Both the position numbers and the translations under genes were made by a program. A DNA stretch of 40,673 nucleotides from Escherichia phage KM02: the sequence record PQ179042; one strand, written 5' to 3'. The notes below the pieces were generated by a model, which worked only from the letters and a program-made list of their open reading frames with translations, searched no databases and was not told the origin of the DNA. Positions 1 to 40,673 of this stretch are shown piece by piece; position 1 is the stretch's first letter, and each line of letters opens with the position of its first letter.

Positions 1-1
1 T

Positions 2-177
2 TCTCACAGTTCAAGAACCTCAAGTCTCCCCATAGGCCCTCTTTCAGTCAGACCAAAGGCCCTACCCCAGTCTATCATAAGGTTGGACCGATGGTCAAGA
101 CTTCAGGTCAACGATAGGTAGAGGCTATGGCTTAGGGAAGGACGATAGGTTGGGACTATGGGTCTTCTTTGAGTCTC
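2..177. repeat. Left direct terminal repeat (176 bp), identical to 40498-40673
   Basis: Exact match of window start (from nt 2) to window end; nt 1 (t) does not match 40497 (a). T7 has a comparable 160-bp terminal redundancy. Confidence 0.95.
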
Positions 178-197
178 TATCTGTATAGTGTTATAGT
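169..197 (+). promoter_or_regulatory. Candidate host sigma70 early promoter (TTGAGT-17-TATAGT)
   Basis: -35-like ttgagt at 169-174, 17-nt spacer, -10 tatagt at 192-197; straddles the terminal repeat boundary. Confidence 0.4.
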
Positions 198-214
198 ATA
201 ACATTACGTCCTAC

Positions 215-298
215 ACCTACAGTCTCACTAACCTACAGTCTCACTAACCTACAGTCTCAACCATAAGACACCAACACCTACAGTCATAGACCTACAGT
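215..298. repeat. Array of five ACCTACAGT-core short repeats (two full 16-bp units ACCTACAGTCTCACTA) beginning 38 bp inside the left terminal repeat boundary
   Basis: Copies at 215, 231, 247, 276 and 290, read directly. Confidence 0.8.
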
Positions 299-334
299 TA
301 ATAGACACAAGGCTATAGACTTAAGGTCTAAGAC

Positions 335-550
335 ATGTTAGTCAAAGACTATATCCTCTTACACCATGGGGCCGACGATAGCTTAATCAATATTATTTCG
401 AATTACCTATTGACTATAGGTCCAGACTATGGCTTAATAGCTTCCGTCAACACGACACGGCAACAACCGGATAGTGAAGACGCCTGGTCATCCCGGTTAA
501 GTAGACAGCCTGATAAGTCATACGAACAACAGGCAGATGACAGAAAGTAG
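335..550 (+). CDS. Hypothetical early protein (weakly supported)
   Basis: 71-aa ORF in the track; only a weak aagg Shine-Dalgarno; lies upstream of the best host promoter candidate. Confidence 0.25.
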   Translation: MLVKDYILLHHGADDSLINIISNYLLTIGPDYGLIASVNTTRQQPDSEDAWSSRLSRQPDKSYEQQADDRK

Positions 551-5811: not shown

Positions 5812-5834
5812 CCTAAACTATCACTATAGGATTA
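5812..5834 (+). promoter_or_regulatory. Phage-RNAP promoter (T7 phi1.1 analogue)
   Basis: ctaaactatcactatagg at 5813-5830. Confidence 0.75.
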
Positions 5835-5874
5835 GACTCAAGGTCATGACTCAAAGTCGTGGCCTTCATGATTA
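5833..5874 (+). promoter_or_regulatory. Conserved RNase III-site-like motif (copy A; T7 R1.1 position)
   Basis: tagactcaaggtcat-N11-gtggccttcatgatta; near-identical copies at 13420-13461 and 37474-37512. Confidence 0.5.
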
Positions 5875-5907
5875 ACCCTAAATAAACACTACTGGAGATT
5901 TAACCGT

Positions 5908-13216: not shown

Positions 13217-13417
13217 GTGCGATTGGAAGTCACCATACGGAGGACACCATTAGTGTTTAAGAAACTTAAAGCTCGCTACCATCGGTTCATGTACAAATGG
13301 TGGAGCGATGAAGCAACCTGCCTGTCGAACATTCTTGGAGAACAGCGGTTCGAGTCTAAGGCATGGAAGAAAGCTAACCGTAAGTTTATGTACCACTTCT
13401 TACGTACAGACTTATAG
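13217..13417 (+). CDS. Hypothetical protein (probable GTG start at 13253)
   Basis: ORF in track; SD acggagga lies 7 nt before the GTG at 13253. Confidence 0.35.
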   Translation: MRLEVTIRRTPLVFKKLKARYHRFMYKWWSDEATCLSNILGEQRFESKAWKKANRKFMYHFLRTDL

Positions 13418-13419
13418 GT

Positions 13420-13461
13420 ATAGACTCAAGGTCATTCACATCGAGTGGCCTTTATGATTAG
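13420..13461 (+). promoter_or_regulatory. Conserved RNase III-site-like motif (copy B; T7 R4.7 position)
   Basis: tagactcaaggtcat-N9-gtggcctttatgatta immediately upstream of gene 5. Confidence 0.5.
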
Positions 13462-13480
13462 ACTAAACGGAGGATTAACC

Positions 13481-16900: not shown

Positions 16901-17759
16901 GAAGAAGATAGCTCTTGTTCTTGATGGCGATTACCTAGTATTCTCTTCTATGGCTGCTGCCGAGGACGAGACAGACTGGGGCGATGATATTTATACTCTG
17001 ATTTGTGACCACGCCAAGGCTCGTCATATCCTTGAGAACACCATCGCTGAAATCGTTAAGAATCGCAAGGCGTGGAAAGACGCTAAGATTGTGATGTGCT
17101 TTACGGATGATAATAACTGGCGTAAGGATGTTCTTCCTACCTATAAGGCCAACCGTAAGGGTTCACGTAAGCCTGTAGGTTACAAGAAGTTCGTAGCCGA
17201 AGTGATGGCTGACCCACGGTTCAACAGCTTTCTGCGTCCTACGCTTGAGGGTGATGACTGTATGGGCATCATCGGGACCAGACCTCAGATTGTCGGATGT
17301 GACCATGCGGTTCTGGTGTCCTGTGACAAGGACTTCAAGACCATACCGAACTGTGAGTTCTTCTGGTTAACCACTGGTGAAATCCTGAGTCATACGACTG
17401 CTGAGGCAGACTACTGGCACATGGAGCAAACCATCAAGGGTGACACTACAGATGGCTACGGTGGCATTCCGGGGATGGGTGAGGACACCACTCGTGCGTT
17501 CCTTGACGAGCCGTACTACTTCGTGCAGGAGAGCCGTGAGCTTAAGACTGGTAAGAACAAAGGCCAGATTAAGACTGAGTGGAAGAAGTATCCAAAGCGT
17601 GAAGACATGACGCTGTGGGATTGCATGGTGACTCTGGCTGCTAAGGCTGGCATGACCGAGGAGGAACTTCTGGTCCAAGCTCAGGTCGCTCGTATTTGCC
17701 GGGCCTCCGACTACGACCCTAAGTCCAAGGAGGTCATACTGTGGACACCATCCATGTAA
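16887..17759 (+). CDS. 6: 5'-3' exonuclease
   Basis: CDHAKARHILE, NWRK, YKANRK, CDKDFKTIPNC, TIKGDTTDGY, GKNKGQ, TLWDC, AKAGMTEEE match T7 gp6; SD aggagg 5 nt upstream of 16887. Confidence 0.92.
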   Translation: MMGAEKKIALVLDGDYLVFSSMAAAEDETDWGDDIYTLICDHAKARHILENTIAEIVKNRKAWKDAKIVMCFTDDNNWRKDVLPTYKANRKGSRKPVGYKKFVAEVMADPRFNSFLRPTLEGDDCMGIIGTRPQIVGCDHAVLVSCDKDFKTIPNCEFFWLTTGEILSHTTAEADYWHMEQTIKGDTTDGYGGIPGMGEDTTRAFLDEPYYFVQESRELKTGKNKGQIKTEWKKYPKREDMTLWDCMVTLAAKAGMTEEELLVQAQVARICRASDYDPKSKEVILWTPSM

Positions 17760-17833: not shown

Positions 17834-17885
17834 GTCTAACCGATAGTCATATCCTATTAATCAAACAGTCATCCATAGGTGAAAC

Positions 17886-17908: not shown

Positions 17909-17969
17909 TTAGGACCTAAGATATGACTATAAGATAGACTTTAGTCTTAACTTAAAGAGGAGATTCAAG

Positions 17970-24796: not shown

Positions 24797-27129
24797 AAAA
24801 TCTTAAAGGTGGCATTAGCCAGCAGCCTGATATACTGAGGTTCTCGGACCAAGGCGAGAAACAGGTAAACTGCTGGTCATCAGAGAGTGATGGCCTACAG
24901 AAGCGTCCACCTACAGTATTCAAGCGACGTCTTAACATCGACGTTGGGAGCAACCCTAAGTTCCACCTGATTAACCGTGATGAGCAGGAGCAGTATTACA
25001 TCGTGTTCAACGGGTCCAACATTCAGGTAGTCGACTTGAGCGGTAATCAATACTCAGTTTCAGGTGCGGTAGACTACGTTAAGTCGTCCAACCCGCGAGA
25101 TAACATCCGTGTCGTTACAGTTGCAGACTATACGTTCATCGTGAACCGTAAGGTTGTCGTTAACGGTGGAAGCGAGAAGTCACACTCTGGTTATAATCGT
25201 AAAGCTCGTGCTTTAATTAACCTGCGTGGTGGACAGTATGGTCGCACCCTTAAGGTAGGAATCAACGGAGGCGTTAAGGTTTCGCATAAGCTGCCAGCAG
25301 GTAATGATGCCGAGAATGACCCACCTAAGGTGGATGCTCAGGCCATCGGTGCAGCTCTGAGAGACCTTCTTGTTGCTGCTTACCCTACCTTCACGTTCGA
25401 CCTTGGGTCTGGCTTCCTGTTAATCACTGCCCCTTCAGGGACTGACATTAACTCAGTGGAGACGGAGGATGGCTACGCTAACCAGCTAATCAGCCCAGTC
25501 CTAGACACGGTGCAAACAATCTCTAAGTTGCCTCTTGCGGCTCCAAATGGGTACATCATTAAGATTCAAGGTGAGACCAACAGTAGCGCCGATGAATATT
25601 ACGTGATGTATGACTCCAATACTAAGACGTGGAAGGAGACAGTAGAGCCGGGAGTTGTCACTGGGTTCGATAACACCACAATGCCACATGCTCTGGTGAG
25701 ACAATCTGACGGCTCCTTTGAGTTTAAGACTCTGGACTGGTCTAAGCGGGGTGCTGGCAATGATGACACAAACCCTATGCCTAGCTTCGTGGATGCTACG
25801 ATTAACGATGTGTTCTTCTACAGGAACAGGCTAGGGTTCTTGTCCGGAGAGAACGTAATCATGAGCCGTTCAGCCAGCTACTTTGCGTTCTTCCCTAAGA
25901 GTGTGGCGACATTGAGTGATGATGATCCTATTGACGTAGCTGTAAGTCACCCTAGAATCTCAATACTTAAGTATGCCGTTCCGTTTAGCGAGCAGCTACT
26001 ACTTTGGTCAGATGAGGTGCAGTTCGTGATGACAAGCTCAGGGGTCCTTACCTCGAAGTCTATCCAGCTTGATGTGGGCTCAGAGTTTGCCTTAGGTGAT
26101 AACGCCAGACCGTTCGCTGTAGGACGCTCAGTCTTCTTCTCAGCGCCTCGTGGGTCATTCACCAGTATTAAGCGATACTTCGCTGTAGCAGATGTGTCTG
26201 ACGTGAAGGATGCCGATGATACCACTAGTCACGTACTGTCCTATATCCCTAACGGGGTGTTTGACATTCAAGGTACAGGGACTGAGAACTACATCTGCGT
26301 CAACTCTACAGGTGCATACAACCGAATCTACATCTACAAGTTCTTGTTTAAGGACGGCGTACAACTTCAAGCCTCTTGGTCGCACTGGGAGTTTCCTAAA
26401 GCTGATAAGATTCTGGCGTCTGCGTCGATTGGCTCTACCATGTTCATTGTTCGTCAGCACCAAGGGGGTGTGGACATTGAGCACCTTAAGTTCATCAAGG
26501 AGGCAACCGACTTTCCATTAGAGCCGTATAGACTCCACGTTGACTCCAAGGTGTCTATGGTAATACCAAATGGCTCATACAACGCTGACACCTATAAGAC
26601 TACGGTTGACATTGGTGCTGCTTATGGGGGCAACGCTCCGTCTCCCGGTCGGTACTATCTGATTGACAGTCAGGGTGCCTATGTGGACCTTGGTGAACTT
26701 ACCGACATCTCTACTGTGATTACCCTCAACGGCGATTGGTCGGGACGTACAGTGTTCATCGGACGGTCTTATCTGATGTCCTACAAGTTCTCACGGTTCC
26801 TGATTAAGATTGAAGACGATAGTGGCACTCAGTCTGAAGACACTGGTCGTCTACAGCTTCGTCGGGCTTGGGTCAACTACAAGGACACTGGCGCTCTGAG
26901 ACTCATTGTCAGAAACGGTGAGCGGGAGTTCGTGAATACCTTCAACGGGTACACCCTTGGTCAGCAAACCATCGGTACTACAAACATTGGTGACGGGCAG
27001 TATCGATTCGCTATGAATGGTAACGCATTAACCACGAGTCTAACCTTAGAGTCCGACTATCCTACCCCAGTGTCCATCGTTGGGTGTGGCTGGGAGGCAT
27101 CATACGCTAAGAAAGCTCGTTCAGTCTAA
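24772..27129 (+). CDS. 12: Tail tubular protein B
   Basis: SQSIKNLKGGISQQPDILR, LQKRPP, HLINRDE, VTVADYTFIVNR, RAWVNY, GCGWE match T7 gp12. Confidence 0.95.
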   Translation: MPLITQSIKNLKGGISQQPDILRFSDQGEKQVNCWSSESDGLQKRPPTVFKRRLNIDVGSNPKFHLINRDEQEQYYIVFNGSNIQVVDLSGNQYSVSGAVDYVKSSNPRDNIRVVTVADYTFIVNRKVVVNGGSEKSHSGYNRKARALINLRGGQYGRTLKVGINGGVKVSHKLPAGNDAENDPPKVDAQAIGAALRDLLVAAYPTFTFDLGSGFLLITAPSGTDINSVETEDGYANQLISPVLDTVQTISKLPLAAPNGYIIKIQGETNSSADEYYVMYDSNTKTWKETVEPGVVTGFDNTTMPHALVRQSDGSFEFKTLDWSKRGAGNDDTNPMPSFVDATINDVFFYRNRLGFLSGENVIMSRSASYFAFFPKSVATLSDDDPIDVAVSHPRISILKYAVPFSEQLLLWSDEVQFVMTSSGVLTSKSIQLDVGSEFALGDNARPFAVGRSVFFSAPRGSFTSIKRYFAVADVSDVKDADDTTSHVLSYIPNGVFDIQGTGTENYICVNSTGAYNRIYIYKFLFKDGVQLQASWSHWEFPKADKILASASIGSTMFIVRQHQGGVDIEHLKFIKEATDFPLEPYRLHVDSKVSMVIPNGSYNADTYKTTVDIGAAYGGNAPSPGRYYLIDSQGAYVDLGELTDISTVITLNGDWSGRTVFIGRSYLMSYKFSRFLIKIEDDSGTQSEDTGRLQLRRAWVNYKDTGALRLIVRNGEREFVNTFNGYTLGQQTIGTTNIGDGQYRFAMNGNALTTSLTLESDYPTPVSIVGCGWEASYAKKARSV

Positions 27130-27136
27130 CTTATTG

Positions 27137-27186
27137 AAGGGCCTATAGATTTACCTTAACTATCACTATAGGGACTATAGGCCCTT
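27137..27186 (+). repeat. Perfect 12-bp inverted repeat (aagggcctatag / ctataggccctt) bracketing the phi13 promoter
   Basis: Arms at 27137-27148 and 27175-27186 with a 26-nt spacer that contains the promoter core. Confidence 0.7.
27154..27176 (+). promoter_or_regulatory. Phage-RNAP promoter (phi13 analogue)
   Basis: cttaactatcactataggga at 27155-27174. Confidence 0.7.
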
Positions 27187-27205
27187 AAGGTTATAAGGAG
27201 ACTTT

Positions 27206-27667
27206 ATGTATATTCGCAAGGCTACAGATGTAGACGTTTGGTACGCTGCTGCACAACTTACAGATGACGACTTAGAGGAGTGTAAAGCCAACTATGGGAC
27301 CATTGAAGGTCTCACTGAAAGGTTACAAGCACACCTAACGTCTTCATCTGTGGTTTTGACTAACGCTCTTGGGGAGATATATGCCTATGGGGGCAACCAA
27401 GGTGACAACGTTTGGTTCCTGACTACCAGAATGACCGAGCGTCTCCAGCCTAAAGGTAAGCGAGAGTTCCGTGAGAGAATCATGGAGTATCGTGACAAGA
27501 TGCTGGAGGACTATCCGGTACTATGGAACTACGTCTGGGAAGGCAATACGTCTCACATCAGGTTTCTCAAGTCAATAGGCGCTAAGTTCCACGACGATAA
27601 GTGGACCAGAAGTCCAGTGACTGGAGAAGTATTTATTCTATTCACAATCACTAAGGAGGACACGTGA
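27206..27667 (+). CDS. 13: Internal virion protein gp13-like (by position)
   Basis: 153-aa ORF with SD aaggag between genes 12 and 14. Confidence 0.65.
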   Translation: MYIRKATDVDVWYAAAQLTDDDLEECKANYGTIEGLTERLQAHLTSSSVVLTNALGEIYAYGGNQGDNVWFLTTRMTERLQPKGKREFRERIMEYRDKMLEDYPVLWNYVWEGNTSHIRFLKSIGAKFHDDKWTRSPVTGEVFILFTITKEDT

Positions 27668-27846
27668 CTAAGGTCTGTACCGTCTGTAAAATTGAAAAGC
27701 CACTAGAAGCGTTCTCCCCACGGAAAGACTCTAAGTGTGGTGTACGCGCTGCCTGTAAGCTGACCAGTAGAAACTACCACTCTACATGCGAAGATTTCTA
27801 TGGTAAGGCTGCTGAGTATCTGGCTACAAGCCGGAAGGGGGATTAG
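27664..27846 (+). CDS. Small CxxC zinc-ribbon protein
   Basis: MTKVCTVCKIEKPLEAFSPRKDSKCGVRAACK resembles zinc-ribbon N-terminal modules of phage homing endonucleases; 60 aa. Confidence 0.4.
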   Translation: MTKVCTVCKIEKPLEAFSPRKDSKCGVRAACKLTSRNYHSTCEDFYGKAAEYLATSRKGD

Positions 27847-27882
27847 GAAATTTGCGAACCAATTTCAATCGGTTTAGGTATT

Positions 27883-28437
27883 ATGTCTGTAGCTGGTGCC
27901 ACTATGTCCGCATCCCAACAGGCCAAGGCTGAAGGTGCAGCAATTGATGCTCAGAACCGACAGTCTCAGGAAATGGTTAAGCAGATGAACTACTCTGACG
28001 CCAACCTGAAGATGCAGGAGCGCGACCTGAAGGAGCAGCAGATGGTTGAACTGACAGAGACCACGCTAAACGGTATCCGTAATCAGGGTATGGTCCGAGC
28101 TGCGGTGGCTGAGTCCGGTCTGGAAGGTAACTCTATGGACAGGATTGAACGTCAGGTAGAAGGAGATACAGTCAAGGAGCGAGCAGGGATTACCGAAAAT
28201 TACAACCGAGACTATGCGGCTATCTTCGGGAACCGTATCGCCAACATTGAGAACACAAAGTCTGCTATCCGTGGTCAAGGTAAAATCATCAAGACCAGCC
28301 CACTGGCTCATGCACTTAATGTTGCTACCGCAGGGATGCAAGGTTACGCCGCTGGTAAGTCAATCTCTGGAGCGTCCAGCTCTGGTGGTGCTGAACCAAT
28401 TAGTGCTGCTAAAGGCACACCTACAGGTCATAGCTAA
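27883..28437 (+). CDS. 14: Internal virion protein A
   Basis: MVRAAVAESGLEGNSMDRIERQVEG...ENYNRDYAAIF matches T7 gp14 (IRAAIGESMLEGSSMDRIKRVTEG...ENYRRDYQAIF). Confidence 0.8.
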   Translation: MSVAGATMSASQQAKAEGAAIDAQNRQSQEMVKQMNYSDANLKMQERDLKEQQMVELTETTLNGIRNQGMVRAAVAESGLEGNSMDRIERQVEGDTVKERAGITENYNRDYAAIFGNRIANIENTKSAIRGQGKIIKTSPLAHALNVATAGMQGYAAGKSISGASSSGGAEPISAAKGTPTGHS

Positions 28438-37210: not shown

Positions 37211-37470
37211 CGCAGATGGACTTAGAGAAGTTCCTCTTGATGCTAGATACTGAACGTGCTAGACTCATGCTGCAAGACCTGCGGGATGACTCTAAGCGTT
37301 CTCCTCAGCTCTACAACGCCATTGAGAAGCTTCTGGCTCGTCACAACTTTGTGTTAAGCAAGGTGTCTGTTGACGAGAAGACGCTCGCTGATATGGAGGC
37401 CCTGAACGCAGAGTATGATAAGGTGCTCTCAGCGAACGAGGATAATGACACCGGGTATGGTGTCCAGTAA
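37207..37470 (+). CDS. 18: Terminase small subunit
   Basis: LMLDTERARLMLQDL...RSPQLYNAIEKLLARH matches T7 gp18. Confidence 0.88.
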   Translation: MTQMDLEKFLLMLDTERARLMLQDLRDDSKRSPQLYNAIEKLLARHNFVLSKVSVDEKTLADMEALNAEYDKVLSANEDNDTGYGVQ

Positions 37471-37473
37471 GTG

Positions 37474-37512
37474 TTAGACTCAAGGTCATCTATTGGTGGC
37501 CTTCATGATTAG
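37474..37512 (+). promoter_or_regulatory. Conserved RNase III-site-like motif (copy C; T7 R18.5 position)
   Basis: tagactcaaggtcat-N6-gtggccttcatgatta between genes 18 and 18.5. Confidence 0.5.
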
Positions 37513-37562
37513 CACTAACGTAGGTGACTATACGTGAATTCTTTTAAAACAGGAGGGCAACT

Positions 37563-40099: not shown

Positions 40100-40258
40100 A
40101 TGGCAAAGACCAAAGCTGTACTTAAAGCTCTGGCGACCAATCGAGCTACATACAGGTTTCTTGCTGCTGTTCTACTTGCTGCTGGCGTTACTGCTGGAAG
40201 TGAGTGGGTCTGGTGGGTCGAGACTCTCGTATGTTCTCTGGTGTCTCAGTGTAGTTAA
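40100..40258 (+). CDS. Small hydrophobic protein (gene 19.5 position)
   Basis: 52-aa ORF with SD acaggagg 10 nt upstream; predicted TM helix LAAVLLAAGVTAG. Confidence 0.4.
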   Translation: MAKTKAVLKALATNRATYRFLAAVLLAAGVTAGSEWVWWVETLVCSLVSQCS

Positions 40259-40420
40259 CGCAATCATGATAACGATTCATGAGCGGAAGACCTAAGGTCA
40301 GTACGTGGATAAAGACTCACTCTACTGACCTTAGCTACTGTAGTCAAGGACTTTAGGTAACACCTTAATAGAAGCTCACTTAGGGTCATCCTACTTATTG
40401 GTCTATCCTAGTGTCGCCTG

Positions 40421-40459
40421 ACCTACGGTCCTTGACCTACAGTGGCTGTGGCCTACAGT
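40421..40459. repeat. Three (A/G)CCTAC(A/G)GT short repeats ending 38 bp before the right terminal repeat
   Basis: acctacggt 40421-40429, acctacagt 40435-40443, gcctacagt 40451-40459; same core as the left-end array. Confidence 0.75.
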
Positions 40460-40497
40460 AGTGACGATGAGTTTTGGACCAAAAGTTTGAGACCACA

Positions 40498-40673
40498 TCT
40501 CACAGTTCAAGAACCTCAAGTCTCCCCATAGGCCCTCTTTCAGTCAGACCAAAGGCCCTACCCCAGTCTATCATAAGGTTGGACCGATGGTCAAGACTTC
40601 AGGTCAACGATAGGTAGAGGCTATGGCTTAGGGAAGGACGATAGGTTGGGACTATGGGTCTTCTTTGAGTCTC
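40498..40673. repeat. Right direct terminal repeat (176 bp), identical to 2-177
   Basis: Exact sequence identity with the left end, read directly. Confidence 0.95.

Follow-up and report, generated by a model that had tools for sequence, protein, structure and literature searches.

A known class of RNase III-type sites in the T7 phage group, represented by R13 and R6.5, overlaps phage promoters. Passages in two papers count R13 among the RNase cleavage sites of phage T7, after Dunn and Studier 1983 (PMC6938266; bioRxiv 10.1101/106799), and in a passage of the second, which cites the same work, T7 R13 is called weak. In the T3 record (AJ318471), the stem_loop annotated as "RNase III recognition site R13" (25443-25480) overlaps "T3 promoter phi13" (25457-25479), and the fold predicted for this region coincides with the annotated feature. 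The T7 GenBank records consulted list the promoter alone at phi13; in this region an upstream arm, UUCUCCCUGUGGUGG, pairs with promoter sequence, CCACUAUAGGGAGAA, to give a hairpin of 15+3 bp. At a second T3 locus, the R6.5 stem-loop (17135-17206) fully encloses promoter phi6.5 (17160-17182).

We analyzed the phi13 region of Escherichia phage KM02 (sequence record PQ179042), and by "the window" we mean the whole stretch of 40,673 nucleotides that was studied. The window belongs to Kayfunavirus, is K1F/EcoDS1-like, and falls within the Studiervirinae (the T7 subfamily), with best matches that are 95-97% identical. All of its genes lie on the plus strand. An original prediction, made from the letters of the sequence, held that a perfect 12-bp inverted repeat embeds promoter phi13, that read-through RNA would fold it into a hairpin serving as a processing or regulatory element, and that the DNA could extrude a cruciform. 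We consider it reasonably likely that this locus is the Kayfunavirus counterpart of T7/T3 R13, folded in read-through RNA and putatively cut by RNase III.

Results

A perfect inverted repeat brackets promoter phi13

Both a direct reading of the window and a repeat finder returned an exact inverted repeat, with 12 of 12 positions complementary and the arms 26 nt apart. The 5' arm, AAGGGCCTATAG, lies at 27137-27148 and the 3' arm, CTATAGGCCCTT, at 27175-27186, both on the plus strand, as are all features described here. The 26-nt loop between them (27149-27174) holds most of phi13 (-22 to +4). Promoter phi13 itself, CCTTAACTATCACTATAGGGACT, occupies 27154-27176 (-17 to +6, with +1 at G27171) and is the base-for-base counterpart of the feature annotated as "promoter phi13" in EcoDS1. 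The spacer contains TTAACTATCACTATAGGGA, and a T7-like phage promoter consensus is repeated 9-10 times in the window; together with the EcoDS1 annotation, this consensus bears out the promoter assignment of the original prediction. The arms were also placed as claimed, one upstream of +1 and the other in the transcript. The 5' arm spans -34 to -23 relative to the phi13 start and is confined to read-through RNA from upstream promoters, and the 3' arm spans +5 to +16, sharing 2 nt (+5 and +6) with the promoter. The 3' arm opens with a second copy of the promoter motif CTATAGG, straight after the promoter's own copy, and the sequence immediately 3' of the stem is AAGGTTATAAGG. As for sites of the R13 type, the element is situated between gene 12 (nozzle; Pfam Phage_nozzle), which ends at 27129, and gene 13 (Pfam Phage_T7_Gp13), which starts at 27206, and it overlaps phi13.

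In the window we observed two perfect 12-bp inverted repeats whose loops measure at most 60 nt, versus 0.16 per dinucleotide-shuffled genome. A 12-bp repeat was present anywhere in 13% of the shuffled genomes, and arithmetic from the shuffle result gives an expectation of ~3e-4 for such a repeat inside this 76-nt intergenic space. RNA covering -50 to +20 of phi13 gave a fold with z = -3.4, and 0 of 200 shuffles were equally stable. Because two repeats were observed against 0.16 per shuffled genome, and because of the z value of the fold, we conclude that the phi13 repeat is not a chance feature.

Apart from it, the window has a single perfect 12-bp short-loop repeat, CTAAGGTCAGTA/TACTGACCTTAG, at 40292-40303 and 40323-40334 with a 19-nt loop, just past a 52-aa open reading frame (40100-40258) and in a position like that of gene 19.5. 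Its stem has an AAGGUC...GACCUU motif and gave no match to the canonical RNase III model described below. We also compared the ends of the window (1-400 and 40270-40673) and found no exact direct terminal repeat between them. Terminal repeats measure 178 bp in EcoDS1 and 231 bp in T3; in the window one copy may be missing, or the sequence may be permuted.

Conservation of the repeat among kayfunaviruses

The 106-nt segment at 27110-27215 was present in 220 phage records, K1F included, and was at least 99% identical in 107 of them. For comparison we assembled 18 distinct kayfunavirus versions, along with more distant ones, from viral and metagenome contigs and from GenBank. The original prediction had pointed to the promoter flanks of relatives as the place to look, and there the repeat was conserved. 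The 3' arm, with its core CTATAGGCC, was unchanged in 18/18 aligned sequences. The 5' core GGCCTATAG was unchanged in 17 of the 18, the exception (L008) being an A to G change that gives a G·U pair. In a metagenome contig outside the alignment (L098), the loop-closing pair was lost. We searched metagenome and viral contigs with CACTATAGGGACTATAGG and with GGCCTATAG-N-CTATAGGCC and recovered no compensatory changes; the arms of the matches were near-identical or carried one change that weakened the pairing or made a G·U pair (L008 and L098), and the remaining matches were unrelated repeats. With arms that are near-invariant, compensatory changes in the kayfunavirus-type helix amounted to 0 of 14 pairs. 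Because no pair among these 14 had changed in a compensatory manner, sequence-specific and structural constraint cannot be separated within the genus on the strength of the alignment.

The rest of the intergenic region was less uniform. Both the spacer beside the 5' arm and the promoter specificity region vary, and versions of the latter include TTAACTATCAC, TTACACCCTCAC, TTTAACACTCAC, and TTTTACCCTCAC. Mean identity to the window was 0.91 in the intergenic sequence, which is conserved to a similar degree as the end of gene 12 (0.85 over its final 300 nt) and better than the start of gene 13 (0.70 over its initial 300 nt). Closely related kayfunaviruses (L011, L023, L049, L113, and L115) carry at least 4 different specificity regions (-17 to -7) between identical arms, which implies that the specificity of RNA polymerase and promoter has switched within the genus. 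Not one of 60 GenBank records sampled has an RNase III site annotated at this position, and the EcoDS1 GenBank record has zero such sites annotated anywhere; for the K1F record, the part inspected was the gene 12/13 junction.

The gene 12/13 junction (27106-27205) is a mosaic breakpoint, and the promoter/hairpin segment coincides with the recombination junction. When the window was compared with L006 and L009, identity was ~96% across gene 12, 100% in the intergenic sequence, and ~70% from the start of gene 13; comparison with L003 gave the reversed pattern, ~65% and then 96-98%. The gene 13.5 region (27664-27880) is a replaced or variable segment that is nearly unalignable with relatives. The window encodes there only a 60-aa GTG-initiated open reading frame with cysteine pairs and no Pfam match. 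The gp13.5 of EcoDS1 is 133 aa long and is annotated as endonuclease VII in other records.

Predicted RNA fold at the gene 12/13 junction

Plus-strand RNA from this region was predicted to form a stable hairpin with a 12-bp stem, the 5' arm of which lies upstream of the promoter. In the minimum-energy fold of the window, an internal loop of 2x6 nt separates the 12-bp stem from two lower stems of 5 bp each (27130-27134 paired with 27193-27197, and 27123-27127 paired with 27199-27203), for a total of ~22 bp. An RNAalifold consensus of the 18 kayfunavirus sequences consisted of a 9-bp core and a 5-bp lower stem, UAACU:(A/G)GUUA. The candidate strands of that lower stem in the window are UAACU at 27127-27131, which takes in the stop codon of gene 12, and GGUUA at 27189-27193; among its 5 pairs, one varies between U-A and U·G, with no compensatory change in the 18 sequences. 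The lower stems are thus short, predicted, and different between relatives. Compared with a helix of ~20 bp, or two turns, the window would reach 12+5+5 bp and type-B relatives 13+4+5+3 bp when the predicted lower stems are counted. The Shine-Dalgarno sequence of gene 13 (AAGGAG, 27195-27200) and its start codon (27206-27208) lie beside or partly within the predicted lower helix. At its base, the upper stem reads AAGGGCC...GGCCCUU, which is close to the canonical AAGGUC...GGCCUU. We found no intrinsic terminator in 26500-27900, that is, no GC-rich hairpin followed by a T/U run, and a terminator reading of the element was ruled out for want of this signature.

Hairpins over phi13 across the Studiervirinae

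Some relatives have a helix that extends toward the promoter, with the register of its 3' arm shifted. In Dev2-type sequences, GGCCUAUAGUUUC pairs with GGGACUAUAGGCC over 13 bp, two of them U·G, and the 3' arm spans +1 to +13. In Ro103C3lw, GCCUAUAGUCUCUAU pairs with AUAGGGACUAUAGGC over 15 bp with one U·G, up to promoter position -4, so that the 3' arm spans -4 to +11. A further relative (L004), whose gp13 is 89% identical to that of the window and whose promoter is different, shows a T7-like arrangement inside the group, with an upstream arm, GUCCCCUAU, that pairs with the promoter start, AUAGGGGAC. In 15/15 distinct Studiervirinae lineages, the sequence from -50 to +20 of phi13 folded as a hairpin over the promoter, with z values from -1.8 to -8.5. 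Alignment of the T7-, T3-, L040/L041-, and L004-type sequences produced a 16-bp consensus helix in which 3 pairs had changed on both sides and several had exchanged G·U and A-U.

In one respect the window departs from the R13 type. A 3' arm drawn from promoter positions -9 to +7 was not found, and the promoter of the window could pair over only 7 bp (CCTATAG:CTATAGG). Judged from the sequences compared, this departure is a difference in register, bridged by the Ro103C3lw and Dev2-type intermediates. Because all 15 lineages fold in this way, T3 and T7 have R13 at this position, and a 16-bp consensus helix could be derived, a conserved RNA hairpin overlapping phi13 is a general and already described trait of this phage group, of which the window is a register variant.

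Comparison with canonical RNase III sites

We built a covariance model from seven canonical T3 RNase III sites and scanned the window with it. Six canonical RNase III-type hairpins were detected on the plus strand, at 696-754, 1019-1071, 1956-2009, 5827-5880, 13415-13465, and 37469-37517, with scores of 25-48 bits and E values of at most 7e-4. On the basis of these six model-detected sites, the phage clearly uses the RNase III-type processing system of the T7 group. The same model gave no match at 27100-27210 at E <= 10. As a control we applied it to T3, where it also missed R13 and R3.8 and detected R6.5 weakly. Because T3's own R13 is missed as well, the result at phi13 is not decisive, and it points to the non-canonical R13 class rather than to exclusion of the window hairpin from such sites. 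A scan of the whole window against Rfam returned no family at threshold.

A second promoter in the window is flanked by a repeat. The equivalent of the EcoDS1 phi6.5 promoter (+1 = 17903) is bracketed by a perfect 11-bp repeat, ATAGTCATATC/GATATGACTAT, at 17843-17853 and 17920-17930 with a 66-nt spacer, an arrangement that parallels the T3 R6.5 stem-loop enclosing phi6.5.

Other explanations for the repeat

The hairpin might be functional without being an RNase III substrate, serving as a 3'-exonuclease barrier for the end of gene 12 or as a folding insulator between the cistrons. We regard this as doubtful, even though the hairpin is conserved across lineages, departs from the canonical AAGGUC...GGCCUU consensus, is without a strong lower stem, and has in T7 R13 a relative described as only weakly cleaved in the passage cited above. 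The same position is an annotated RNase III site in T3 and a mapped one in T7. Moreover, a barrier needs an adjacent 3' end, which neither an endonucleolytic cut, on this explanation, nor a terminator, absent from this region, would supply.

It is quite improbable that the element acts chiefly in translational control, with the lower stems hiding the gene 13 ribosome binding site in unprocessed read-through RNA, so that processed RNA and RNA initiated at phi13 would account for most of the translation. For the window, the Shine-Dalgarno sequence was predicted to be unpaired with a probability of ~0.2 in read-through RNA versus ~0.6 in RNA that was initiated at phi13 or cut at 27187. Most relatives showed little or none of this contrast, T7 and T3 showed none, and the lower stems involved are not conserved. 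Occlusion of the ribosome binding site was therefore rejected as a general function.

A DNA-level element, either a cruciform or a dyad operator through which a phage or host protein controls phi13, seems to us very improbable. A perfect dyad brackets the promoter, the arms are invariant in the genus in a manner compatible with sequence-specific recognition, and the fold of the region as single-stranded DNA had a z of -3.3. However, the G·U pairs found in L008, Dev2-type sequences, Ro103C3lw, T7, and L041 are tolerable in plus-strand RNA alone; DNA and minus-strand RNA would have mismatches there. These pairs, together with the compensatory changes in T7/T3-like phages, argue for plus-strand RNA rather than a DNA cruciform. 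Likewise, the 3' arm slides in register (-9 to +7 in T7/T3, then -4 to +11, +1 to +13, and +5 to +16) while the helix is kept, which indicates an RNA fold and not a fixed protein-binding dyad. A 26-nt spacer disfavors cruciform extrusion, and as single-stranded DNA the hairpin reached only -11.4 kcal/mol; on these grounds and on the G·U pairs of the relatives, the cruciform of the original prediction is unsupported. We also count against it the junction-cutting endonuclease, gene 3, that these phages encode, and we know of no transcription factor that acts on class III promoters in this phage group.

That the repeat is a non-functional by-product of CTATAGG duplication and chance complementarity beside an essential promoter, or else a weak pause or attenuator site for the phage RNA polymerase, is highly improbable: the second CTATAGG directly after the promoter's copy and the 13% of shuffled genomes with a 12-bp repeat somewhere would agree with it, but all 18 aligned sequences and the metagenome kayfunavirus contigs retain the arms even where the specificity region has been replaced, analogous hairpins of unrelated sequence occur in other genera, and there is no U-run or terminator signature.

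Discussion

Taken together, these data make it likely that the repeat at phi13 functions as a plus-strand RNA hairpin within read-through transcripts. By analogy with the T7 and T3 sites, RNase III probably cleaves it. Of the original proposal that a 12-bp hairpin in read-through RNA is a processing or regulatory element, the RNA-processing reading is the best supported, through a position shared with R13 and a topology shared with R6.5; the cleavage is deduced by analogy, and the canonical consensus is not matched. In the literature that we searched, we found no paper that combined RNase III with Kayfunavirus and no kayfunavirus RNA-end data. A paper that we found on secondary replication origins, a role considered for phi13, names phiOR and phi6.5 only.

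The following sequence of events would account for the features of the locus. Transcripts from upstream promoters that read through gene 12 would carry both arms, and such RNA would fold in vivo into an upper stem of 12 bp that holds the promoter sequence in its loop. Below it, the gene 12 stop region and the gene 13 leader would form short, imperfect stems on which the upper one stacks, making a helix of ~20-25 bp in total. Host RNase III would then cut this irregular helix at the unpaired positions ~27187-27190, immediately past the 3' strand of the upper stem, if the architecture of the T7/T3 sites is a guide to the position. The cut would separate the gene 12 mRNA, which would keep a protective 3' hairpin, from the mRNA for gene 13 onward; failing a cut, the hairpin may act at least as a stabilizing 3' hairpin. 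Transcripts started at phi13 (+1 = 27171) would have the 3' arm alone and should not be substrates.

In kayfunaviruses the 3' arm lies at +5 to +16 and not inside the promoter, and for this reason RNA initiated at phi13, as well as long abortive products of ~13 nt (GGGACUAUAGGCC), would carry 9-12 nt of antisense to the 5' arm. Activity of phi13 could conceivably open the hairpin in trans and so tune RNase III processing or the stability of gene 12 mRNA, although we think this, suggested by the complementarity of the two RNAs, extremely unlikely. Abortive-transcript antitermination at T-phi (Lee et al. 2010; PMC2952870) offers an analogue for trans feedback. If the idea is true, abortive or short phi13 transcripts would exert feedback on read-through RNA.

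The hairpin leaves the current understanding of T7-group gene expression unaltered. Its description does fill an annotation gap, as more than 200 sequenced K1F-like phages carry the element and several of these are used for therapy or engineering. Redesign of the gene 12/13 junction, or promoter swaps there, would have to reckon with a conserved RNA structure made by the flanks of phi13. From genus to genus the 3' arm shifts in register, an example of one RNA structure that is kept while the promoter inside it changes specificity.

The canonical sites R0.3, R0.5, R1, R1.1, R1.3, R4.7, and R18.5 share with the window hairpin an intercistronic location and an upper stem, asymmetric internal loop, and lower stem. 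The window hairpin differs from them in having a much larger loop, weaker lower stems, and no score with the model. T3 R6.5 has the topology of the window hairpin: its upper stem of ~10 bp begins AAGG.../...CCUU, its apical loop holds a complete promoter, and an internal loop and lower stem follow. Unlike the window hairpin, it is located at phi6.5, has a long canonical lower stem, and scores 21 bits with the canonical-site model, a weak hit where the window hairpin goes unrecognized. T7/T3 R13 has in common with the window the gene 12-gene 13 position, the overlap with phi13, carriage in read-through RNA only, and a non-canonical hairpin that lacks the AAGGUC...GGCCUU consensus. In R13, however, the 3' arm is the promoter itself (-9 to +7), whereas in the window it is a separate segment at +5 to +16 with the promoter in a 26-nt loop, and cleavage has been demonstrated in T7 only. 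The phi13 hairpin combines the topology of R6.5 with the position of R13. As far as sequence comparison can tell, it most likely belongs, as a kayfunavirus representative so far left out of annotations, to the known R13/R6.5 class of promoter-overlapping RNase III-type sites and is not a new type of element.
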